Shown here piece after piece: positions 4,615-18,827 of a stretch of 32,000 bases of DNA. This stretch comes from Motilimonas cestriensis (GTDB lineage: Bacteria > Pseudomonadota > Gammaproteobacteria > Enterobacterales > CBDFNC01): NCBI RefSeq assembly GCF_051055415.1, contig NZ_CP170335.1, one strand, 5' to 3'. Position numbers and translations under genes: made by a program. Below the pieces are notes generated by a model. The model ran no database searches and was not told where the DNA came from. It worked only from the letters and a program-made list of their open reading frames with translations. Within the stretch, counting starts at the first letter, position 1, and the number at the start of each line of letters is the position of its first letter.

Positions 4615-6474
4615 TTATTTAACTTTTGATAGAGGAGTGGGGCGAGAAATTAAAAAGCCTTGTAGACCGTCAACGTACATATTTTCAAGTAATTGTTTCT
4701 GCTCTAGGTGTTCAACCCCTTCCGCAATCACCTGACAGCCCATACGGTGGGCCACATCGACAATCATACGTAAAAATTGTTGGTTGGCACTGTCGCGTTC
4801 AATATTACTGATCAGTCCCGCATCCACTTTTACAAAATCTGGTTTTAGCTCTTTAAACAAGCGAAATGAACCAATACCTTTACCAAATTTACTAATGGCA
4901 CTGCGACTGCCAGTGCGCTTTAACATATCAAACACACGTTTACTGGCAACTAAGTTACGATCTAACACTTCTTCATCAAATTCAAAAATCATCGATGCTG
5001 CAATGTTTGGTTCACGTAGTAATAAACGCTCAAGCCAGACAATAAAAGCACTGTTTTGTAATGAAGTGGCGGAAATATTAACCCCCCAACGGGCTGAGCC
5101 ATCGGTTTTATGGCGGCATTGGCTAACCATGGTTTCGAGAATAACTTGTTCTAGTTTTACAATTAGGTCCATACGCTGGGCCATAGCAAACACAGTTTCC
5201 GTTGGGATCATCGCGTTGTTTTGACCAACGAAGCGCGTAAATATTTCTTGGTACCCTTTCATGTTGCGATGAATGGCTTGGATAGGTTGATGCAGCAACA
5301 TGACTGCGCGGGTTTCAATGATTTCTTCAATCACCTTCTTCCAGTGCAGTTGACCTAAATTGGTTTCATTAGAGTCATTCTGCTCAAATGCCCAAGCATT
5401 AACGCCTTCGGTTTGTGATTTTGCTAAGGCAATATCGGCACGAGCCAATACTTGCTCAGGTAATTGGCCTGAAGAAATAGCGGACAAACCTGTGTAAGCC
5501 ACACTTTCTAAGTTATGCAGTGCTTGGTATTCATCAAAATGATGTTTTAATGTTTTAGCTAGTTTTTGCGCCGCGCTAATGGTCATGTTGGGGGCGAGTA
5601 GGGCAAAATCTGAGCCTGAAATACGGTAACACTGGCATTCAGGAAAGCGTTTAATTAATTGCACTAGCATGCGGCCGATATCTGACAGGTAAATATCACC
5701 TTGTTGATAGCCACGCTGTTGGTTGATGTTGTTTAATTCCGATGCGCGAACAAGGGCAAGGATAGCGGCGTTGCTGTCACCTTCAGAGCTTAATATTTGC
5801 GTTAGTTCTTTACGAAAGGCGTGGCGGTTATTTAGACCTGTCAAATTATCCATGTTAACTTGCTTAGCAAGTAACTGAATTTTTTGTTGCTGCTCTTGCA
5901 TCACTTGATGAAAGCGTTGTCTTTGTTCCAATAACTGTTCTGTTACTTGAGAAAAAGTGCTGAGTTGTGCGTCTTCTGAGCTGACTTCCTGCACTAAGCT
6001 TTTTTCTAAGTTCTTAATTAAACGGAAGTACGCCCAGTTTACCAATACCGCGGTTGCTATGAATAAAACTAATAATTGATAGAAAAGCGTGGTGGCTATG
6101 CTGGCTGTTGCTTGAAAGCTATTGATGTAATTAATACTTAATGTAGCGGTCTGAATATCGACTTTTTCGGTAGCGCTTGGAAATAGAAGTTTAAAGAGTA
6201 GTGAAACGCCTTCCGATGTATTGGCCATAAAAGAGAAGTCACCTGATTTATCGGTGATTTGTAAATGGCTTAGATGATGCTTAGCGGCAAGTTGGTCTGC
6301 AGTGTTTTGAGTTGCCCCTTTTATCTCAATCGTTTGAGTAATATCACTGGTGACATCTTCATTAACAACTGTAATTAGTGGTGTGAAATGAAGCTTAATT
6401 GCCAATAATACTGCTATCGCAGCAACCAAAATAATGGCATTGGTAATAATAAGGCTATGTTTGTACTCTTTCAT
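4615..6474 (-). CDS. Membrane-anchored signalling protein with degenerate GGDEF and EAL domains (CsrD/MshH-like architecture)
   Basis: 619 aa. The order is N-terminal TM helix, ~120-aa loop, second TM (LFYQLLVLFIATAVLVNWAYF), a coiled-coil-like QQ-rich linker, the GGDEF domain (LTGLNNRHAF...) and the EAL domain. The GGDEF signature is SGSDF and the usual DxD metal site reads RAS. The EAL motif is EIF and the DDFG(T/A)GYSS motif reads SKFGKGIGSF. KVD, EGVE and QGF are retained. Confidence 0.8.
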   Translation of the reverse strand: MKEYKHSLIITNAIILVAAIAVLLAIKLHFTPLITVVNEDVTSDITQTIEIKGATQNTADQLAAKHHLSHLQITDKSGDFSFMANTSEGVSLLFKLLFPSATEKVDIQTATLSINYINSFQATASIATTLFYQLLVLFIATAVLVNWAYFRLIKNLEKSLVQEVSSEDAQLSTFSQVTEQLLEQRQRFHQVMQEQQQKIQLLAKQVNMDNLTGLNNRHAFRKELTQILSSEGDSNAAILALVRASELNNINQQRGYQQGDIYLSDIGRMLVQLIKRFPECQCYRISGSDFALLAPNMTISAAQKLAKTLKHHFDEYQALHNLESVAYTGLSAISSGQLPEQVLARADIALAKSQTEGVNAWAFEQNDSNETNLGQLHWKKVIEEIIETRAVMLLHQPIQAIHRNMKGYQEIFTRFVGQNNAMIPTETVFAMAQRMDLIVKLEQVILETMVSQCRHKTDGSARWGVNISATSLQNSAFIVWLERLLLREPNIAASMIFEFDEEVLDRNLVASKRVFDMLKRTGSRSAISKFGKGIGSFRLFKELKPDFVKVDAGLISNIERDSANQQFLRMIVDVAHRMGCQVIAEGVEHLEQKQLLENMYVDGLQGFLISRPTPLSKVK

Positions 6475-6642: not shown

Positions 6643-6718
6643 TGGCTCCTCCTGCTGGGATTGAACCAGCGACCTGCGGATTAACAGTCCGTCGCTCTAC
6701 CAGCTGAGCTAAGGAGGA
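6643..6718 (-). tRNA. tRNA-Asn (anticodon GUU), copy 1 of 3
   Basis: The reverse complement is TCCTCCTTAGCTCAGCTGGTAGAGCGACGGACTGTTAATCCGCAGGTCGCTGGTTCAATCCCAGCAGGAGGAGCCA, 76 nt. It has a 7-bp acceptor stem (TCCTCCT/AGGAGGA), anticodon loop CTGTTAA, T-loop GGTTCAATCC and an encoded CCA. It resembles E. coli tRNA-Asn. Confidence 0.95.
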
Positions 6719-6796
6719 ACAATTTTTACTTTGTAATCTTATTGACTACTAAGTGCACTGCACTTGAGGTTCAAGCGTCTTGCCTCAACCAGAATT

Positions 6797-6872
6797 TGGC
6801 TCCTCCTGCTGGGATTGAACCAGCGACCTGCGGATTAACAGTCCGTCGCTCTACCAGCTGAGCTAAGGAGGA
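6797..6872 (-). tRNA. tRNA-Asn (GUU), copy 2 of 3
   Basis: The 76-nt sequence is identical to copy 1. A 78-nt spacer separates it from copy 1. Confidence 0.95.
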
Positions 6873-6899
6873 ATGATTCTTTAATATTTGTTTGTTGTG

Positions 6900-6975
6900 T
6901 GGCTCCTCCTGCTGGGATTGAACCAGCGACCTGCGGATTAACAGTCCGTCGCTCTACCAGCTGAGCTAAGGAGGA
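6900..6975 (-). tRNA. tRNA-Asn (GUU), copy 3 of 3 (first transcribed)
   Basis: The 76-nt sequence is identical to copy 1. A 27-nt spacer separates it from copy 2. Confidence 0.95.
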
Positions 6976-7011
6976 ATCATTTACACAATGTGTCTCACAA
7001 CAACGGGGCGC

Positions 7012-7040
7012 ATATTAAAACTCGGGCGTAGGGCTGTCAA
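7012..7040 (-). promoter_or_regulatory. Sigma70 promoter of the tRNA-Asn cluster with a GC-rich discriminator
   Basis: On the - strand: TTGACA (7040-7035), a 17-nt spacer, TAATAT (7017-7012), then GCGCCCC. A consensus -35, a near-consensus -10 and a GC-rich discriminator are typical of stringently controlled stable-RNA promoters. It sits ~40 nt upstream of tRNA copy 3. Confidence 0.7.
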
Positions 7041-7223
7041 CACTTGAACAGATAAAAAGTGTCATTTAGCGACTGGCTGCTGAAATACTAGCCATTAGCG
7101 TATAAAACATGTTCGATAGCGCAACTGAAACTAAGAAATTAGTTACTAAAGGTTCAAAAAAAGCAGCCGATATGACATTTAATTCATATTTTGTGATGTC
7201 AACATGACTTATGCGAGGATGAG

Positions 7224-7964
7224 ATGAAATTTGGCCTATTCCCAAATAATTTAATGGCAACAATATTAAGCAATACTAATCATAACAAAGTACAAGAAAG
7301 CTCTACGCCCCTAAGCCAAGATACGCTGCCTACTTTGAGTGCCGATACCTATCATAAGGGAAAGGATCAAGAGCCTGATCCTGTATACAGTCGTCCGATG
7401 GTGATCACTGAATCTAAATATACTACTGCTGAAATAGAAGAGCGTCAGAGGATGAGGGTCATCGCAATAGGCCAGCTCTATCTCGGAGGTGACATGTTTC
7501 ATGCAGCAGACCAAATGACTGACTATTATGATGAATTTATGTCAAAAATCGAAGCGGAAAACCCAAAACTAGCTGACAAAAAATGGGGGTTCTCGGTTAA
7601 TACCGAAGGAGCAATTGAGGTGACAGGAAAACTCGCTGACACTGAAAAAAGCTATTTAGAAAACATATTGAATGAAGACACCAGCTTTGTTTGGTTAGCG
7701 CAGGGCATAAAAGAGAATTTTTTAAAGTACACCGAAATGGAGCGGGGCGGGCCTGATGGTACCAGTCAATATTGGGGGAAATATGATGTTAATAAGGACA
7801 ACTTCGGTGACATGATTGATATGCGTGAATTGATTGAAGTCTCCAGAGAAACCAACGAGACAACAAGTCTATTTGGTCATAACCTAAATGTATTTCGTTT
7901 TGTCGGTAACTTAGGTAGCCAACTTGGAATCAATGCTGAAGTGAAATATGAGTCTGAAAAATAA
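7224..7964 (+). CDS. Hypothetical protein with no recognisable family
   Basis: 246-aa ORF with GAGGA 4-5 nt upstream of the ATG. I see no signal peptide, TM segment or catalytic motif. It looks more AT-rich than its neighbours and is followed by 1.8 kb of non-coding DNA. Confidence 0.5.
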   Translation: MKFGLFPNNLMATILSNTNHNKVQESSTPLSQDTLPTLSADTYHKGKDQEPDPVYSRPMVITESKYTTAEIEERQRMRVIAIGQLYLGGDMFHAADQMTDYYDEFMSKIEAENPKLADKKWGFSVNTEGAIEVTGKLADTEKSYLENILNEDTSFVWLAQGIKENFLKYTEMERGGPDGTSQYWGKYDVNKDNFGDMIDMRELIEVSRETNETTSLFGHNLNVFRFVGNLGSQLGINAEVKYESEK

Positions 7965-8578
7965 CTTGCTTAGGCTCTGGGAGCTGCTGTTGGCTGAGTT
8001 ACCTCTTTTTATGTTTTGATTAAATGTACTCGCTCAGTCTTCCTAGCAGATGACTACTTTGTATTGTACATGCGCTTAATGCTCTTTCCGTATTTAAAAT
8101 CTTCTTAGGTCCAATAGCACCGCGCCAACAAGTAAGGCAAAAATAGCCTAACCTAGCCATTGTGCCTTCAAGGCTCAGTAATTTGTCGATTGGATGGTAA
8201 GTATCAAAGCTGCAACGGGTATTAAAATCATAACAAAGCGAGCCTTACCGTAATCAACTTCAGCTTAGCCATATTAAAAGCAGTTATGTGAATGACCAAG
8301 ATGACCCTAGCGGTGAAACTTGATAACAAAATCGATCTCATTATCTTTGCTGCAGCGCGTCAGACGGCTACAGCTTTGCGCGTCCCACCAATTCGGTGAA
8401 TCTGATTTGATGTAAGCAGCGCGTTACGCACTTAACCAAAACCTGTTATGCCGAAAAGGTGGTCTTCCTTAGCCATATCCCTGCAAACTATGGGTTGTTA
8501 GTCGCTGTGTTTGCCTAGATGGAGGGTGTAACAATAGGCTTGGTAAAAAACACAGGAAACCCTTTGATAATTCATATT

Positions 8579-8598
8579 TACTGTGTTTATATACAGCC
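8579..8598. promoter_or_regulatory. LexA (SOS) box
   Basis: TACTGTGTTTATATACAGCC has the form CTGT-N8-ACAG (8581-8596). It matches 16 of 20 positions of the gammaproteobacterial consensus TACTGTATATATATACAGTA. It overlaps a possible + strand promoter: TTGATA at 8564-8569, a 17-18 nt spacer, and TATATA at 8588-8593. Confidence 0.65.
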
Positions 8599-8702
8599 TT
8601 CTGTAAAGATGAGACATGGATGAAGTTACATAGATTTATCTGAGAGCATGAATAGTATTGTCGGTTAATGGACTTAATTTACAGGTACAAATGGTTATAT
8701 AG

Positions 8703-8984
8703 CTAGGGTCTGTTGATCTTTGCTGGTTAATTTTTGTTCGAGAGGGGACACCTTGTCTAAAAGCGTTTTGAGCAAGACGAGCAGTGTGTAGCTTAGCATT
8801 CTAAGTAAATACTGCTCAACGCTGGGCAAAACGCTTTTAGCCGAATCCGTAGGACAGCGTTTGTTGGGCATTTCTACTGCGTTAGCGCCTTTTCGCGTAG
8901 TTCACTATGCCACAAAGTCGCTGCCTTGTATAAATACCCAACAATTCGCTGCAAAAACAATCACGAAAGATCAACAGACCCTAG
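8703..8984. mobile_element. MITE-like non-autonomous element, 282 bp, no ORF
   Basis: Perfect 19-bp terminal inverted repeats: CTAGGGTCTGTTGATCTTT (8703-8721) and AAAGATCAACAGACCCTAG (8966-8984). There is an internal 14-bp perfect inverted repeat, CTAAAAGCGTTTTG (8757-8770) / CAAAACGCTTTTAG (8827-8840), with nested stems. A related fragment lies at 11844-11914. Confidence 0.6.
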
Positions 8985-9154
8985 TAACAGGTGGTTAACA
9001 AGTAAACTTAGTAAAATAGGGCTTTAGCGATGATTTTTCATTCTAACCGGATTTTGTTTCCAAAATTGCCGACGCGCTACATCAAAATAAAGTGAAAATT
9101 GAATGTTGGTTCACATTTTTTTTCGATGTTTTTTTTGTCATGAGTAAATAAGAG

Positions 9155-9224
9155 TTATACACATCAAGCTGGCAACCTTGCTGTGTAAGGCTTGTGTAGA
9201 CTTATCCACTATTTTTGTGGATAA
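9155..9224. promoter_or_regulatory. Cluster of three DnaA boxes
   Basis: TTATACACA (9155-9163, + strand, 9/9 to TTATNCACA). TTATCCACT (9202-9210, + strand, 8/9). TGTGGATAA (9216-9224), which is TTATCCACA on the - strand (9/9). The last two face each other across 5 bp. A weaker box TTATCCAAA lies at 9749-9757 next to the uvrB RBS. Confidence 0.6.
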
Positions 9225-9768
9225 GTGTGTGGGTTAAGGTCTGTTAAGTGCTCCTGAGCCTTGTGCCATCAGGGTTCGAGCGTATTACTATATTTTATAT
9301 TGCTCATCATCTTTTTCTTTAATAACAATAACTTAATTATGTCAATAGTGTCATGTTTAAGGGGGCGATGAAAAATTTAATTTCTTGGTTGTACAATTCT
9401 TCATCTGTGGGTTATTTCTTTTTTCGTTAAGAAAAATTAGCGATAGTCAACCTTAAAATTAATTTTTTTATCGGTGTTTTTATTGCTAATTCGCCATTTT
9501 TCGGTTTTTAAAAATAGCCTTATGGAGCAGGTTAGTGGCTCATTACTAATGACGTTAGATTTCGCGGTGAGTTTGACGAGATTTAAGGTTTAAGGGGCTG
9601 CTAAAGCTAAATATTGCTATTCAGGCTCGCTCTTATCGTAATTTTACTGCGCCTAGGCAGAGCAAAGCCTGATAACGCTAGTTTTATCAGTTAAAATAGC
9701 GCGATTTTTCGGTTGGTAAAATATAGTCAGTTGAGCTACGGTGCATACTTATCCAAAGGAGCCTATCA

Positions 9769-11766
9769 GTGAAAAAATCATTTCAACTCGAATCTGCATT
9801 TAAACCCAGTGGTGATCAACCAGAGGCCATCAGCACTTTAGTTGAAGGTTTTAATGACGGTTTAGCGCATCAAGTGCTACTTGGGGTCACGGGCTCGGGT
9901 AAAACGTTCACGGTGGCGAATTTGATCAAAACGTTAGACCGGCCAACTATAGTTATGGCGCCAAACAAGACCTTGGCAGCGCAGCTTTATGGTGAAATGA
10001 AAGAGTTTTTTCCGAACAATGCTGTCGAGTATTTTGTTTCTTATTACGATTATTACCAACCTGAAGCGTATGTCCCCAGCACTGATACTTTTATTGATAA
10101 AGATGCATCAGTCAATGATCACATTGAACAGATGCGGCTCTCGGCGACTAAGGCGCTAATGGAGCGCCGTGATGTCATCATCGTGGCGTCTGTCTCCGCC
10201 ATCTATGGCCTTGGTGATCCGCAATCCTACTTGTCGATGATGTTGCACTTAACCACGGGTGATATAATTGATCAGCGTGATATTTTACGTCGCTTGGCGG
10301 AAATTCAATATACCCGCAATGATATGGCGTTTAGTCGTGGTACCTTTCGCGTGCGTGGCGAAGTGATAGATGTTTTTCCGGCTGAATCGGATAAACATGC
10401 GGTGCGTATTGAGTTGTTTGATGGCGAGGTTGAGCGCCTAAGCTTGTTCGATCCGCTAACGGGCCAGAGTTTAACAGATGTACCTCGGATCACGGTTTAT
10501 CCTAAAACTCACTATGTGACGCCACGGCAAACTATATTAGATGCGATTGAGAATATTAAAGTTGAGCTGGGTGAGCGTAAAAAACAGTTACTCGACAATA
10601 ACAAGTTAATTGAAGAGCAGCGTATTACCCAGCGGGTGCAATACGATATTGAGATGATGCAAGAGTTGGGTTACTGCTCTGGCATAGAAAACTACTCCCG
10701 TTATCTATCTGGCCGCTCGCCAGGTGATGCGCCGCCGACATTGATTGATTATTTACCTGCCGATGGCTTGATGATCATTGATGAAAGTCATGTCACGGTG
10801 CCGCAAATTGGCGCGATGTATAAAGGTGACCGATCTCGTAAAGAAACCCTTGTTGAATATGGCTTTCGTTTACCCTCTGCGCTGGATAACCGACCATTAA
10901 AGTTTGATGAGTTTGAACGCATCGCGCCGCAAACCTTATATGTGTCAGCGACTCCGGGCAATTATGAGTTAGCGCAAACCAATGGCGAGTTTGCCGAGCA
11001 GATAATTCGCCCAACCGGTTTACTTGATCCTGAAATTGAAGTCCGGCCAGTGGCGACTCAAGTGGATGATCTATTGTCGGAAATTCGTGTACGGGTTGCG
11101 CAAAAAGAGCGCGTGCTCGCCACCACTTTGACTAAAAAAATGGCGGAAGATTTATCCGAATACTTAGCCGACCATGGCGTAAAAGTGCGTTATTTACACT
11201 CTGATATCGACACCGTTGAGCGGGTGGAGATTATTCGTGATTTACGTTTGGGGGTGTTTGATGTGATTGTCGGCATTAACTTACTGCGTGAAGGTTTAGA
11301 TATGCCTGAGGTATCGTTAGTGGCGATCCTAGATGCCGATAAAGAGGGTTTTTTACGCTCGGAGCGTTCATTAATCCAAACTATTGGTCGCGCGGCTCGA
11401 AACGTTAAAGGTAAAGCCATTTTATACGCAGACAGTATGACTAAATCAATGCGTAAGGCCATTGATGAAACTGAGCGTCGCCGCAAAGTTCAGCATCAAT
11501 TCAACCTTGATCATGGCATTACACCAAAAGGGGTGAATAAAGCCATTTTGGATATTATGGCGATGGGCACAGGGAATAGTAAACTCAATAAAGTCGCAGA
11601 GAAGAAGGGTGAGTATAAGATAGTTGACCCGCAAACCTTGCTAAAACAAATCGCTGAATGTGAAAGCAAGATGTTTGAACATGCCAAAAACTTGGAATTT
11701 GAACAAGCAGCGGCAATGCGCGACGAAGTAGCAAGTTTGCAGCAGCAGTTGCTAGCCCTGGGCTAA
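9769..11766 (+). CDS. uvrB: Excinuclease ABC subunit B (UvrB)
   Basis: 665 aa with a GTG start and AAGGAG 7 nt upstream. The N-terminus [21 protein letters not shown] parallels E. coli [21 protein letters not shown]. It has Walker A GVTGSGKT, helicase motifs, and the C-terminal UVR motif ([13 protein letters not shown]). Confidence 0.97.
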
Positions 11767-11843
11767 GCTACAGCTAAGCAGTATGGCGATTGCAAGGTTA
11801 TTCTAGCGTGGCGATCCTGTACTGATAATTAACAGCTTCCTAC

Positions 11844-11914
11844 GGCCTGTTGATCTTTGTTGGTCATTTCTAGTGCGTTAGCGCCTTTTCGCGTCGTTCA
11901 CTATGCCACTAAGT
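11844..11914. repeat. Shorter relative or fragment of the 8703-8984 element
   Basis: GGCCTGTTGATCTTT (11844-11858) matches the left terminal repeat 8707-8721 at 14 of 15 positions. Segment 11856-11914 matches 8860-8918 at 55 of 59 positions in my manual alignment. I found no right-hand terminal repeat. Confidence 0.6.
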
Positions 11915-11930
11915 ACAGTGGCTAGACAGA

Positions 11931-11959
11931 GTTGCACCACCAGTAGTTTGTGGTGCAAC
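11931..11959. terminator. Perfect 10-bp hairpin between convergent uvrB and trpS; possible bidirectional terminator or REP-like element
   Basis: GTTGCACCAC (11931-11940), a 9-nt loop, GTGGTGCAAC (11950-11959). Neither side has a U/T tract, so terminator function is uncertain. Confidence 0.3.
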
Positions 11960-11987
11960 AGCCTAAGGTTGGATGGCGGCCCTTAGT

Positions 11988-13001
11988 TCAAAAAATATTT
12001 AGTCCAAATACCGCCTTAACATCAAGCAGTGTTTGCTCGGTCTGCTCTTTTGAGGTTTGACTGCCACGTTTTAAAATGGCCAATAATTGCGCCTTATCGT
12101 TTAAATATTCTGCCCGCTTATGGCGTATTGGACGAAGCAGCTCTTGTAGGCATTCTTCTAATATCTTTTTTGTTGTGCCATCACCCAATCCACCATGGCG
12201 ATATTGGCTTTTAAGCTGTTCAACAGTGTTTTTATCCTGATGGAAAGCATCCAAGTAAGTAAACACGACATTGCCTTCAACTTGACCTGGGTCTTGTACC
12301 CTTAGGTGATTTGGATCTGTATACATGGCTTTTACCGCGGCACTGATTTCTTGTTCAGACGCGCCAAGGTTAATAGTATTGCCCATGGTTTTAGACATTT
12401 TATTTTTACCATCTGTGCTGGGTAATCTCGGCGCGTTACTGAGCAGTGGTCGACATTCTGTCAGGACCTTTTTGTTTGCTAGGTGATTAATTTTTCTTAC
12501 TATTTCGTTAGTTTGTTCGATCATCGGAAGTTGATCGTCGCCGACTGGTATCAGAGTTGCGTTAAATGCAGTGATATCAGCCGCTTGAGAAATTGGGTAA
12601 GTTAAAAAACCGGCGGGGATTGAACGGTCAAAGCTTTTACTTTGAATTTCTGTTTTGACAGTGGGGTTTCTCTCTAGGCGAGCAATAGACACCAAATTAC
12701 TGTAGTACATGGTTAGCTCGGCAAGGGCAGGTAATTGGGATTGTAGACAAATGGTGGTTTGGTCTGGGTCGATGCCAACCGCTAAGTAGTCAGCAACCAC
12801 ATTAAGGATATTGGATGATACCTTCGCGGGATTATGCGCGTTATCAGTTAGGCCTTGCATGTCGGCCACCAGTATTGTTTGGTGGTGTTGCGACTGCAGT
12901 AATACTCTCTGTTGAAGAGAGCCAACATAATGGCCTAAATGCAGCGGCCCAGTTGCTCTATCGCCGGTTAAAATAATCTCTGGTTTAGTTGCTATGTTCA
13001 T
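11988..13001 (-). CDS. trpS: Tryptophan--tRNA ligase, divergent (TrpRS II-like) type
   Basis: A class I aaRS with HIGH as HLGH (TGDRATGPLHLGHYVGSL) and KMSKS as KMSKT. Its size (~337 aa) and motif context fit TrpRS, but it is clearly unlike E. coli TrpS ([25 protein letters not shown]...). I moved the start to ATG 13001 (MNIATKPEIIL), which has GGAG 8 nt upstream. The track's M at 13013 is a TTG. Confidence 0.85.
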   Translation of the reverse strand: MNIATKPEIILTGDRATGPLHLGHYVGSLQQRVLLQSQHHQTILVADMQGLTDNAHNPAKVSSNILNVVADYLAVGIDPDQTTICLQSQLPALAELTMYYSNLVSIARLERNPTVKTEIQSKSFDRSIPAGFLTYPISQAADITAFNATLIPVGDDQLPMIEQTNEIVRKINHLANKKVLTECRPLLSNAPRLPSTDGKNKMSKTMGNTINLGASEQEISAAVKAMYTDPNHLRVQDPGQVEGNVVFTYLDAFHQDKNTVEQLKSQYRHGGLGDGTTKKILEECLQELLRPIRHKRAEYLNDKAQLLAILKRGSQTSKEQTEQTLLDVKAVFGLNIF

Positions 13002-13099
13002 GAATATCTCCAAGTGAAAAAATGCTACTGGAGATAAAAAAGATCTGACATTCTTAGCTACCTACCAGCAGCTTAAGAATGTGAAAATTCCGCGCCGCT
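13002..13099 (-). promoter_or_regulatory. Structured trpS leader: hairpins, T-run and an SD-sequestering helix
   Basis: All elements are on the - strand. CGCTCT/AGAGCG forms a hairpin around the leader stop codon. A 10-bp stem with one bulge pairs CATTCTTAAGC (13081-13071) with GCTAAGAATG (13058-13049). T6 lies at 13041-13036, 7 nt after that stem. ATCTCCA (13035-13029) is perfectly complementary to TGGAGAT (13012-13006), which contains the trpS Shine-Dalgarno. Confidence 0.4.
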
Positions 13100-13153
13100 C
13101 TAAAAAGAGCGCCACCAGAAAAAGGAAATGGTAGGTGAATTAAATGTTTTCAT
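13100..13153 (-). CDS. Candidate 17-aa leader peptide MKTFNSPTISFFWWRSF with tandem Trp codons
   Basis: ATG AAA ACA TTT AAT TCA CCT ACC ATT TCC TTT TTC TGG TGG CGC TCT TTT TAG reads from 13153 down to 13100. An AGGA sits immediately 5' of the ATG, which is very short spacing. WWR matches the regulatory core of E. coli TrpL (..GWWRTS). It ends 98 nt upstream of the trpS ATG on the same strand. Confidence 0.45.
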   Translation of the reverse strand: MKTFNSPTISFFWWRSF

Positions 13154-13304
13154 TCCTTGAACTTATCAAGGAATTTTTGAAACCTCAAGGGTTAAATAAT
13201 TTAAGGCTGAAGTTTAAGTTAACCGTAGCAGTTATTTGACGATGACATCTGCTTGAGCGCCACGCTGACATTGTCTACAATAACGCACTTTATATTTTTA
13301 GGTC

Positions 13305-13559
13305 ATGAACATGAACGACACGCTATCGAAACCAGATTTACCTGATCGCCTATCTTGTAACCCACGTAGTCCAAATTATGTAGAAGAGATTTTTGAGCAC
13401 GATATTGGCATTCGACTTAACGGCAAAGAGCGTTTTGATGTTGAAGAATATTGCATCAGTGAAGGTTGGGTTAAAATTCCTTCGCCGAAGGCGCTAGATC
13501 GCCGTGGTCAACCGCTTTTGATCACCCTAAAAGGCACTGTTGAAGCTTATTATTCTTAA
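13305..13559 (+). CDS. DUF3297-like small conserved protein
   Basis: 84 aa. LPDRLSCNPRSPNYVEEIFEHDIGIRLNGKERFDVEEYCISEGWVKI...LKGTVEAYY resembles proteobacterial DUF3297 proteins as I remember them. The start may instead be the ATG at 13311. Confidence 0.6.
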   Translation: MNMNDTLSKPDLPDRLSCNPRSPNYVEEIFEHDIGIRLNGKERFDVEEYCISEGWVKIPSPKALDRRGQPLLITLKGTVEAYYS

Positions 13560-13803
13560 CTTTTCCAATAAAATCGCGTCTTACTTAGGCGCGGTTGATC
13601 GCTAATTTGTTTTTTTCGTTTAAGAAATCTGCCGGTATCAACCGTTCCCTTCTTTCCCTTCTTTTTCATTTTAAATTATATAAAATCCCCTTAGCTATTT
13701 TTATTGCCTAGAAAAATCTATTTCAGTGATAAAATACATAACCTTAGCCGCGCTTATATAAATTGATATGTGGCTAGATAGCCATCACAAATGGAGTTGA
13801 TAA

Positions 13804-14388
13804 GTGGATTTTATACAACAAATGATAGGCAGTAGCGCCATTGAGTATATTGCCGTGACTTGTGGGTTTCTTAATGTTTATTTGATCATTAAACGGTCGC
13901 TGTGGAACTACCTGTTTGGTTTCATTATGGTGGTGCTTTACGCCAAAATTTTCTTTGATTATCAACTTTATAGTGATTCATTATTACAAGTATTTTTCTT
14001 TATCACGCAATGTTATGGCGTGTTTTATTGGCTGAAATATAAAGCCCCTGATGGCAAGGTTCAAGTGGCCTATCTAAATCATCGTCATTTTAGTCAGGGA
14101 TTGTTGGCTACAAGTGCATTGTGGCTTATTTTAGCCGTGGTGATGCAACAATATACTGATGCAACACATCCATTTTGGGATGGTGCAATTGCGGCGTTGA
14201 GTGTCACTGCGCAAATATTATTGATGCGCCGACATTTGCAATCATGGTATCTGTGGATTGCCGTTGACGTGTTAGCCATTGGACTGTTTATAGTGAAAGG
14301 TTTACTACCCACAGCAGCGCTGTATGGCGTGTTTTTGATACTTGCTATCTTAGGTTTATTACAATGGCAGAGAGCATCACGTGACTAG
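13804..14388 (+). CDS. pnuC: Nicotinamide riboside transporter PnuC
   Basis: 194 aa with a GTG start and GGAG 7-8 nt upstream. MDF...NYLFGFIMVVLYAKIFFDYQLYSDSLLQVFFFITQCYGVFYW parallels E. coli PnuC (NYFFGLINVTLFGIIFFQIQLYASLLLQVFFFAANIYGWYAW). The protein is polytopic. Confidence 0.9.
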   Translation: MDFIQQMIGSSAIEYIAVTCGFLNVYLIIKRSLWNYLFGFIMVVLYAKIFFDYQLYSDSLLQVFFFITQCYGVFYWLKYKAPDGKVQVAYLNHRHFSQGLLATSALWLILAVVMQQYTDATHPFWDGAIAALSVTAQILLMRRHLQSWYLWIAVDVLAIGLFIVKGLLPTAALYGVFLILAILGLLQWQRASRD

Positions 14389-15370
14389 AGGCTTATATCT
14401 TGGCAAGTTCATGCCTATTCATCATGGTCATCTGTGGGTGATTGACACCGCAGCTCAACTTGTGGATGAGCTCACCGTATTAGTATGCGCAGTTAGCCAA
14501 GAGCCAATTGATGGCCGTTTACGTAGCCACTGGGTGAGAAGCAGTGTTAGCGAGAACATTCAGGTGCGTGAACTTTTTGATGATTCATTACCTCAACAGC
14601 CGGAGGACGACCCCGACTTTTGGCCAAAATGGCGTGATGCGCTTAGCCCATTTGGCCCTTTTGACTATGTTTTTGGTGGGGAAGATTACGTGGTGCAACT
14701 TGCTTACGAAATTGGCGCCGTTGCGGTGCCGCTGGGCCGCAGTAGCGTTAACATTTCAGCTACTATGATCAGAAATGCCCCCTATGAACATTGGCGTTAT
14801 ATACCCACCGCCGTACGGGCTCATTTTCAGCGTCGTGTTACGTTTTTAGGGCCTGAGAGCACGGGCAAGTCGACTTTGTCAGCGCGGTTGGCACAGCGGC
14901 TTGATCCTAGTGGTCAATTGAGCAATCTGATGACGGAATATGGTCGTATTTATGATGCTTCCCTCAAGCAAGGACAGAACTGGACGCGGCAAGATTTTCG
15001 TAGCTTAACACACACTCACATTGCAATGCGTAATGCGCTTGCTAAGCACGCTGGGCCTTATCTGATAGAAGACACCGATCTGATCCAAACCATGGCTTGG
15101 CAGCGATTGTTAATGGGAGAGGTGGATAGTCAGGACTACCCGTTACAGGATTTCGCTGATTTATACTTATTATTATCGCCTGATGTGCCTTGGATTGACG
15201 ATGGTACTCGTTATGGCGAATCATTTCGCGTTGATATGTTTGAGTTTTTAAAAACGCAACTAGAATGTTTAGGCTTGCGATTTGTCGTGATTGATGGCAA
15301 TGACTGGAATAGGCGAGAGCAGTTGGTGGATGATGCGGTAGATAAGCTACTTAACCTGAGCTCTGGATAA
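14381..15370 (+). CDS. nadR: NadR-type NMN adenylyltransferase / ribosylnicotinamide kinase lacking the N-terminal HTH domain
   Basis: 329 aa with a GTG start overlapping the pnuC stop by 8 nt. It has the nucleotidyltransferase motif GKFMPIHHGH and the Walker A GPESTGKST of the kinase domain. It is ~80 aa shorter than E. coli NadR at the N-terminus. Confidence 0.85.
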   Translation: MTRGLYLGKFMPIHHGHLWVIDTAAQLVDELTVLVCAVSQEPIDGRLRSHWVRSSVSENIQVRELFDDSLPQQPEDDPDFWPKWRDALSPFGPFDYVFGGEDYVVQLAYEIGAVAVPLGRSSVNISATMIRNAPYEHWRYIPTAVRAHFQRRVTFLGPESTGKSTLSARLAQRLDPSGQLSNLMTEYGRIYDASLKQGQNWTRQDFRSLTHTHIAMRNALAKHAGPYLIEDTDLIQTMAWQRLLMGEVDSQDYPLQDFADLYLLLSPDVPWIDDGTRYGESFRVDMFEFLKTQLECLGLRFVVIDGNDWNRREQLVDDAVDKLLNLSSG

Positions 15371-17468: not shown

Positions 17469-18827
17469 ATGACCAAAAAATACACGCTAGCAGCACAAAA
17501 GAACTTACCTGAGCTCGTTGGTTGGGTAAAGCAAGAGGCGTTTTGCTTAAATCTGTCTTCTGACCGACTAGCCTTTTTGATTGCCGTATCTGTGGTAGCA
17601 GAGCAAGAGTTAGGGGCTGAATTAACGGAAGCACAGCTTCATGATGCGTTTCGTTTGGTGAGCGACATTTTTGGCCAAGTGGATGAAACTCAGACCGAGC
17701 GTGCTAACAACGCGGTGAATGAATTTTGTCGCCAACAATTATTTAATCGCTTTGGCGCAGATACCATGGACACCGCAAGCCTGTATCGATTAACGCCCTT
17801 AGCGCTGGGCATTGTTAACTTTTATGCCCAGCAAAAAACCTATTCCAATGTTAAATTGTCTATTCTACTCACCCAAGTTGCGGCTGAAATTACCAAAGTA
17901 TATGACGCGGCTAAGCAGGGCGGTGATGAACAATATTGGGATGAGTCGGTTTACAGTGTTCTGAAATACTCAGTGGAAGATATTTTTGAGCGCATTGATT
18001 TAACCCAGCGCGCTATGGACAGCCAACAACAAGCAGCGAAAGATAACATTGCCCAGTTACTGCACCAAAACTGGAGCCAAGCTATTAGCGCCTGTGAGCA
18101 GCTATTAGCCGAAACCAGCAGTCATTTACGTGAATTGCAAGATACACTCACCTCAGCGGGCGATAAGCTGCAGTCGGGTTTGCTTAATATTCAAGAAACC
18201 GTGCACGGCAATGAAGACTACGAACACATTGAAGTGTTAGTGTTTAACTTACAAGCCCGCTTAGATGGCATCATTGCTTGGGGTCAACAGTCTATCGATT
18301 TATGGACCCGCTACGATCGACATGTGCATAAGTTTATTCGCACCGCCATCGACATGGACAAAAACCGCGCCTTTAGTCAACGTTTACGCGAGTCGGTACA
18401 AAATTTCAGTCAACATAACTGGCATTTAGTGATAGCCGAAGAAGACCGTATTCTTGAGCTGCGCGATGAAACCTTGAGTTTCCGCGATGAAACCATCACC
18501 GGTGAAGTGCCACAAGAAATGGAATACCAAGAGCTGGTGGATATTCAAAATGAAGTGGCTGGGCGAGTAGAAGCCTATTTGGCGCAGTTTAAAGACAATC
18601 AACAGCCCCTTGAATTAGCCATGGTGTTACGGGATTTCTTGGCCGATTACCCCAGTGTGCAGCATTTTGATATTGCCCGCCTAGTCATTGATGAAGCCTG
18701 TAAACTGGGCTTATCGAGTGCGGAAGTGAAATTTACCGGGGCACAGGCGCCATGGCGACCCATTAACACCACTGGGGCTAAAATTCAGGCGCATCATATT
18801 GATACCTATGACACTGATGGCCAATAG
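17469..18827 (+). CDS. mukF: Chromosome partition protein MukF (kleisin)
   Basis: The protein is collinear with E. coli MukF, e.g. PELVGWV, YRLTPLALGI, WGQQSIDLWTRYDRHVHKFIRTAIDMDKNRAF and GAKIQAHHID. I chose ATG 17469 (MTKKYTL...) as the start. The track ORF starts at an upstream TTG. Confidence 0.93.
   Translation: MTKKYTLAAQKNLPELVGWVKQEAFCLNLSSDRLAFLIAVSVVAEQELGAELTEAQLHDAFRLVSDIFGQVDETQTERANNAVNEFCRQQLFNRFGADTMDTASLYRLTPLALGIVNFYAQQKTYSNVKLSILLTQVAAEITKVYDAAKQGGDEQYWDESVYSVLKYSVEDIFERIDLTQRAMDSQQQAAKDNIAQLLHQNWSQAISACEQLLAETSSHLRELQDTLTSAGDKLQSGLLNIQETVHGNEDYEHIEVLVFNLQARLDGIIAWGQQSIDLWTRYDRHVHKFIRTAIDMDKNRAFSQRLRESVQNFSQHNWHLVIAEEDRILELRDETLSFRDETITGEVPQEMEYQELVDIQNEVAGRVEAYLAQFKDNQQPLELAMVLRDFLADYPSVQHFDIARLVIDEACKLGLSSAEVKFTGAQAPWRPINTTGAKIQAHHIDTYDTDGQ

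Follow-up and report, generated by a model that had tools for sequence, protein, structure and literature searches.

A cluster of DnaA boxes upstream of uvrB in the marine bacterium Motilimonas cestriensis is homologous to the DARS1 element of Escherichia coli, and positions 9202-9236 of the 32,000-nucleotide stretch of DNA that we analysed (hereafter the window) very likely represent the orthologue of the E. coli DARS1 core, as judged by sequence comparison. A search of the 32-kb window with the DnaA-box consensus TTATNCACA, scored as matches out of nine, placed box I at 9202-9210 on the plus strand (TTATCCACT, 8/9), identical to box I of E. coli DARS1, and box II at 9216-9224 on the minus strand (TTATCCACA, 9/9 and thus the full consensus; TGTGGATAA on the plus strand), the two standing head-to-head across the 5-bp spacer ATTTT (9211-9215). 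A homologue of box III follows 3 bp past box II in the same orientation (9228-9236, minus strand, TAACCCACA, 7/9; TGTGGGTTA on the plus strand). An extra perfect box occupies 9155-9163 on the plus strand (TTATACACA, 9/9), 38 bp before box I and outside the DARS core, and the sequence of the region (9140-9240) contains gagTTATACACAtcaagctggcaaccttgctgtgtaaggcttgtgtagacTTATCCACTatttTTGTGGATAAgtgTGTGGGTTAagg. The original prediction had listed boxes at 9155-9163 (+), 9202-9210 (+) and 9216-9224 (-), the last two converging over 5 bp, and all of these were found as described, with scores of 9/9, 8/9 and 9/9. Its proposal of a uvrB-linked DARS1 counterpart is likewise upheld by the agreement of boxes I and II and of the spacings with E. 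coli, by the recurrence of the core upstream of uvrB and by a unique profile match. Its choice of the perfect box at 9155-9163 as the third core box did not stand, because boxes I and II, both spacings and the register equal those of the E. coli core when the 7/9 box at 9228-9236, absent from its list, is taken as the counterpart of box III.

As the reference we used the bioD-uvrB spacer of E. coli K-12 (NC_000913.3), in which the DARS1 core reads TTATCCACT-ATTCC-TGTGGATAA-CCA-TGTGTATTA, compared with TTATCCACT-ATTTT-TGTGGATAA-GTG-TGTGGGTTA at 9202-9236 of the window. [quoted passage not shown] DARS cores consist of three boxes, with boxes I and II arranged head-to-head across a 5-bp space and box III placed head-to-tail (PMC6868365, PMC11724364); box II of DARS1 is a full-consensus box, and high-affinity boxes I and II separate DARS1 from DARS2 (PMC11724364). 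The window has the same three-box core, in which the head-to-head pair is of the high-affinity type with a full-consensus box II, and box III lies head-to-tail at 3 bp, where GTG and TGTGGGTTA take the place of CCA and TGTGTATTA in E. coli. Box III is degenerate in the window, as it is in most non-enteric orthologues. ChIP-seq in E. coli has shown DnaA to occupy DARS1, where the 'double box' is given as TAATACACA-tgg-TTATCCACA (PMC11317965 Table 1), and the equivalent on the minus strand of the window is TAACCCACA-cac-TTATCCACA.

The gene whose linkage defines DARS1, uvrB, is encoded at 9769-11766 on the plus strand (NCBIfam NF003673, UvrB equivalog, 1087 bits). The box cluster lies upstream of it at a distance of 545-614 bp, and the core at 567 bp with box III on the uvrB-proximal side, in a region (7964-9769) where no ORF of at least 60 aa was found. 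GC content is 0.27-0.33 across ~9250-9550 compared with ~0.40 on each side. The original prediction had described an ORF-free setting some 550-610 bp 5' of uvrB, an AT-rich tract after the cluster and a weaker box at 9749-9757, and each of these features is present, the weaker box as TTATCCAAA on the plus strand (8/9). Alignment of the upstream regions of Motilimonas-group relatives revealed no conservation of this last box, which is probably a chance match to the consensus. A 15-nt direct repeat joining it to box I was also not conserved in these relatives and was set aside as chance.

Single DnaA boxes are not enriched in the 32-kb window, which contained three perfect boxes where 1.48 were expected and 33 boxes with at most one mismatch where 36.9 were expected. 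Their clustering upstream of uvrB, however, is non-random. A group of three boxes, two of them perfect, within 70 bp arose in 0/1000 first-order Markov simulations of the window, compared with 78/1000 for any three boxes with at most one mismatch in 70 bp. Elsewhere in the window, a perfect box (TTATGCACA, minus strand) and an 8/9 box (TTATTCGCA, plus strand) stand back-to-back, 2 bp apart, within the mukF coding sequence (18323-18342), and this pair is probably fortuitous.

To place the core in a wider context, we scanned GTDB genomes with the UvrB of the window and obtained 80 uvrB loci with a wide bacterial spread. We then searched 650 kb of sequence on both strands, comprising these 80 loci, other fetched loci and the window, for cores in which box II was perfect, box I deviated from the consensus at no more than one position and the two were 5 bp apart. 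The core was found in 20 loci, 19 of which have it upstream of uvrB, with box III on the side nearer the gene and box I on the far side. The 19 loci comprise enterics (E. coli, Kosakonia, Enterobacter, Klebsiella and two Citrobacter), three Aeromonas, one Photobacterium, two Colwellia, two Rheinheimera, one Rodentibacter, Motilimonas pumila, two metagenomic contigs and the window itself, so that the arrangement and its orientation to uvrB recur in at least six gammaproteobacterial families. Under the same strict criteria the core was absent from the other 65 of the 80 GTDB loci, which belong to other gammaproteobacterial orders, Alphaproteobacteria, Betaproteobacteria, Firmicutes and others. 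Among the Gammaproteobacteria sampled, Ursidibacter, Methylobacter, Neptuniibacter, Thiotrichaceae and Succinivibrionaceae lack it in the 3 kb that precede uvrB, so that the element is not universal. When up to three mismatches were allowed, the search gained only two matches, neither of them in a uvrB upstream region, from which we concluded that the motif is either fully present or absent.

Some of these loci differ in their gene context. The sole locus of the 20 in which the core is not upstream of uvrB belongs to an Oleiphilaceae MAG (L019), where TTATCCACT-AAATC-TGTGGATAA-CTT-TGTTGAAAA at 5244-5278 lies downstream of uvrB on the opposite strand and faces a pyrD-like gene. In Colwellia (L007, L009) and Rheinheimera (L014, L025), the core is located ~1.7 kb 5' of uvrB with a co-directional MatE efflux gene between, that is, ~300 bp before the MatE-uvrB gene pair. 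In Colwellia, box I is also preceded, at a distance of 9 bp, by an 8/9 box on the minus strand (TTATCCTCA).

An anchored comparison of the 20 loci revealed how constraint is distributed within the core. The spacer between boxes I and II was 5 bp long in 20/20 loci and variable in sequence, and box II matched the full consensus in every orthologue found. Box III was always exactly 3 bp from box II, with its position and its TGT(G/T) start invariant in all orthologues. Its score was 8/9 in E. coli (TGTGTATTA), 6-8/9 in other genera, 7/9 in the window and 6/9 in M. pumila, and within the genus its conservation ends after TGTGG. The single mismatch in box I was never compensated in box II, as in Aeromonas, where TTACCCACA (also present in Rheinheimera) stands opposite TGTGGATAA. 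The uncompensated mismatch and the freely varying spacer together indicate that the constraint acts on two protein-binding sites rather than on a hairpin, and on these grounds we rejected the idea that the inverted repeat folds as RNA or DNA.

Homology extends beyond the consensus boxes themselves. We built an nhmmer profile from 15 cores taken upstream of uvrB in other genera, leaving out every Motilimonas sequence, and its only significant match on the plus strand of the window was at 9186-9247 (34 bits, E = 3.6e-10), compared with 14.5 bits in the reverse orientation. This DARS1-homologous segment consists of the core and short conserved flanks on both sides; 6-7 bp ahead of box I, these include a motif resembling AAGG(C/T)T(G/T)G that is weakly conserved.

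Within the Motilimonas group, the closest named relative is M. pumila (L082), whose UvrB is 85% identical to that of the window, and a related Logan contig (L083) was available for comparison. The intergenic DNA of the window has mostly diverged from that of L082 and L083, and within it a 31-nt block, TTATCCACTATTTTTGTGGATAAGTGTGTGG, is 100% conserved. The boxes are under purifying selection, and their arrangement is kept in the uvrB upstream regions of related genera, M. pumila included, which was the second comparison put forward with the original prediction. The contig of a 96%-identical relative (L084) ends 521 bp 5' of uvrB, short of the core, and is uninformative on the boxes. A further supposed close relative (P0004/L085) proved to be a bio-uvrB contig resembling E. 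coli and was discarded.

The perfect box at 9155-9163 has a counterpart in both M. pumila and L083, where TTATGCACA lies 37 bp before box I within a conserved AGTTATrCACAT amid diverged spacer sequence; in the anchored comparison of 20 loci, neither E. coli nor any of the other genera had an equivalent. It is probably an extra high-affinity DnaA landing site beside the core that is specific to the Motilimonas group. A second conserved block, CTGTG(A/G)GTT at about 9405-9414, was shared by four of the four Motilimonas-group sequences in the alignment. In the window it is a possible weak DnaA box on the minus strand, its plus strand reading TGTGGGTTA, the same 9-mer as box III, of which the window holds 3 copies where 0.21 were expected. 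Just 5' of this block is a promoter-like ATGAAA-18-TACAAT (9368-9397, with TACAAT at 9392-9397), and the block may act as a weak operator through which DnaA controls a uvrB promoter. These two features could be taken together as a remodelled Motilimonas DARS1, in which the 9155 box would nucleate DnaA and offset a decaying box III, cooperating with the box I/II dimer through looping or oligomer extension, and in which 9406-9414 would be a separable transcriptional arm. Such an element would be a variant DARS1 with a different assembly pathway, an idea that we regard as speculative and rather improbable.

Among the explanations that dispense with DnaA reactivation, the one that comes closest is that the boxes serve only as the operator of a distal, DnaA-repressed uvrB promoter, tying excision repair to the state of DnaA. 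The boxes of E. coli DARS1 are known as DnaA boxes 5-7 of uvrBp3, a promoter repressed by DnaA, and mutation of the box II equivalent derepresses uvrBp3 about 6-fold (PMC6015884); moreover, the orientation of the core is fixed, and in most lineages 300-570 bp separate it from the gene that opens the uvrB unit. A consensus scan for promoters and terminators, however, gave no enrichment and no promoter-like site overlapping 9150-9250 or the core itself, and repression alone leaves the exact geometry of a 5-bp head-to-head pair with a third box at 3 bp unexplained, whereas ADP release requires just that geometry of boxes I, II and III (PMC6868365). The explanation is weakest in its exclusivity, both functions coexisting in E. 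coli, and we consider it unlikely. Since E. coli DARS1 and uvrBp3 are the same DNA, the promoter and DARS1 readings do not exclude each other; a DnaA-controlled uvrB promoter, which the original prediction had offered as an alternative, is compatible with DARS1 as a role of the site and is unlikely only as a replacement for it. By analogy with uvrBp3, DnaA probably also modulates distal uvrB transcription through the core DNA. For the LexA box (CTGT-N8-ACAG, at most one mismatch), we found no match in the window at 8990-9769 or in the uvrB upstream regions of L082, L083 and L084, and the same scan recovered the known SOS box of E. coli uvrB. Either uvrB may be outside classical SOS control in the Motilimonas group or its LexA motif may differ.

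A datA-like or simple titration site, which would restrain initiation by sequestering DnaA or by hydrolysing DnaA-bound ATP, had been the other option of the original prediction. Any high-affinity box titrates some DnaA, and there are two perfect and several weaker boxes within ~260 bp here (9155, 9202, 9216, 9228 and 9406). The datA mechanism, however, needs an IHF site between the boxes (PMC5742627), and we found no match to the IHF consensus WATCAANNNNTTR in 9100-9769. This fits DARS1, which needs neither IHF nor Fis, rather than DARS2 or datA. The arrangement, moreover, equals that of DARS1 box for box and not that of datA, and the locus is syntenic with uvrB and not with the datA neighbourhood, so that this option finds little to recommend it and is very unlikely to be correct. 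Least credible of all, to the point that we would scarcely entertain it, is that the inverted repeat TTATCCAC-N7-GTGGATAA is a chance palindrome or an operator to which some other, dimeric regulator binds. Its two 8-bp arms match perfectly, the form recognised by many helix-turn-helix dimers, but with up to two mismatches allowed only 0.01 such matches were expected per window, and the single match found had 0 mismatches. Each arm is identical to an E. coli site at which DnaA has been mapped by footprinting and ChIP (PMC6015884, PMC11317965). The asymmetry of the site is also conserved, with box I imperfect and box II perfect in every case and a third half-site on one side only.

On the DARS1 reading, function can be proposed by analogy with E. 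coli, where ADP leaves the protomers on boxes I and II of the DARS core (PMC6868365, PMC11724364). DnaA would bind and release ADP at the window core in a similar way. ADP-DnaA would first occupy the full-consensus box II (9216-9224), and the box II protomer would recruit a second protomer head-to-head onto box I (9202-9210) over the 5-bp spacer. A third protomer would then be recruited head-to-tail onto the weak box III (9228-9236). The head-to-head AAA+ contact would expel ADP, and the resulting apo-DnaA would depart and rebind ATP, giving a larger pool of initiation-competent ATP-DnaA. DARS1 is further characterised by binding ADP-DnaA as oligomers and promoting ADP dissociation independently of IHF and Fis, by delayed initiation upon its deletion and stimulated initiation with extra copies, and by a mid-replichore location between oriC and ter.

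The neighbourhood of the element has features of its own. The order of features in the window is rnfCBA, a GGDEF/EAL gene, three tRNA-Asn genes, a 246-aa ORF, a 282-bp palindromic repeat, DARS1 and uvrB, followed by a repeat fragment, a block of trpS-like, DUF3297, pnuC and nadR-like genes, tpiA, a DUF218 gene and mukFEB. A search of 7000-9900 against Rfam (E <= 1) returned tRNAs only. The three tRNA-Asn(GTT) genes are in tandem on the minus strand at 6643-6975 with equal Rfam scores; M. pumila has four at this place, ~300 bp from its core. Two insertions set the window apart from M. pumila: ~2 kb between the tRNA cluster and DARS1, and ~3.7 kb between uvrB and tpiA. The former, at 6975-9060 between the tRNA-Asn cluster and the DARS1 core, is absent from M. 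pumila and is probably an insertion beside tRNA genes. It includes the 246-aa ORF (7224-7964), for which there was no Pfam or NCBIfam match, and a MITE-like palindromic element of ~282 bp (8703-8984) with 32-nt terminal inverted repeats (84% complementary), an inner perfect inverted repeat of 14 nt and a predicted fold of -125 kcal/mol (z = -9.7), for which there was no Rfam match. A related fragment, with ~60 nt more than 90% identical to this element, lies just 3' of uvrB at ~11840-11990, so that uvrB is bracketed by copies. The four-gene block at 11988-15370 lies between uvrB and tpiA, which are directly adjacent in M. pumila and both metagenomic relatives. In this block the trpS-like gene scores 233 bits against TIGR00233, far under the PRK equivalog cut-offs, and the nadR-like gene combines AAA_28 with a cytidylyltransferase-like domain.

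The conservation described here adds to the evidence that strong purifying selection maintains the DARS1 geometry (box I, 5 bp, box II, 3 bp, box III) and its linkage to uvrB well beyond the enterics, in Alteromonadales-type, Aeromonadales, Vibrionales and Pasteurellales lineages and in Rheinheimera, and it supports the view that DARS-type reactivation of ADP-DnaA is general in this part of the Gammaproteobacteria. Descriptions of the element, of where it lies and of how it works already exist for E. coli, so that the finding is largely expected and raises no new question. The window adds one more lineage and a minor natural variant, in which a weak box III is combined with an extra upstream box, and this variant offers a natural setting for asking how much box III matters. 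To our knowledge, DARS1 activity has been demonstrated by experiment in E. coli alone.

Of the known systems, datA resembles the window locus in that both are non-coding groups of DnaA boxes with a regulatory role, actual or presumed, towards the initiator, but it has its own box arrangement, an essential IHF site and a negative action, none of which was seen in the window. DARS2 of E. coli, located between mutH and ygdP, has the same three-box core, with boxes I and II head-to-head and box III head-to-tail, and presumably the same ADP-release chemistry (PMC6868365). It differs in its low-affinity core boxes, with one mismatch in box II, and in the IHF and Fis sites of its 455-bp region (PMC11724364, PMC5742627), whereas the window locus has high-affinity boxes I and II, lacks an IHF consensus and neighbours uvrB rather than mutH. 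The presence of DARS1 at uvrB and of a DARS-like sequence at the same gene in Vibrio cholerae is already published, according to the passages of PMC6090056 and PMC5835720 that refer to Fujimitsu 2009. Vibrio cholerae is, like the organism studied here, a non-enteric gammaproteobacterium with a core at uvrB, but of a lineage separate from that of the window (Alteromonadales incertae sedis), and the Vibrionaceae version of the element is represented in our sample by Photobacterium (L005). The closest parallel remains E. coli DARS1. There, box III is an 8/9 match rather than 7/9, the distance to uvrB is 419 bp rather than 567 bp, and the upstream neighbour is bioD instead of a tRNA-Asn cluster and inserted DNA; the window, for its part, has an extra perfect box 38 bp before box I that is without counterpart in E. 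coli, and no canonical LexA box was found downstream of its core. In both organisms, however, box I has one mismatch, box II is the full consensus and box III is proximal to uvrB, and the element lies a few hundred bp 5' of that gene without an IHF consensus site.
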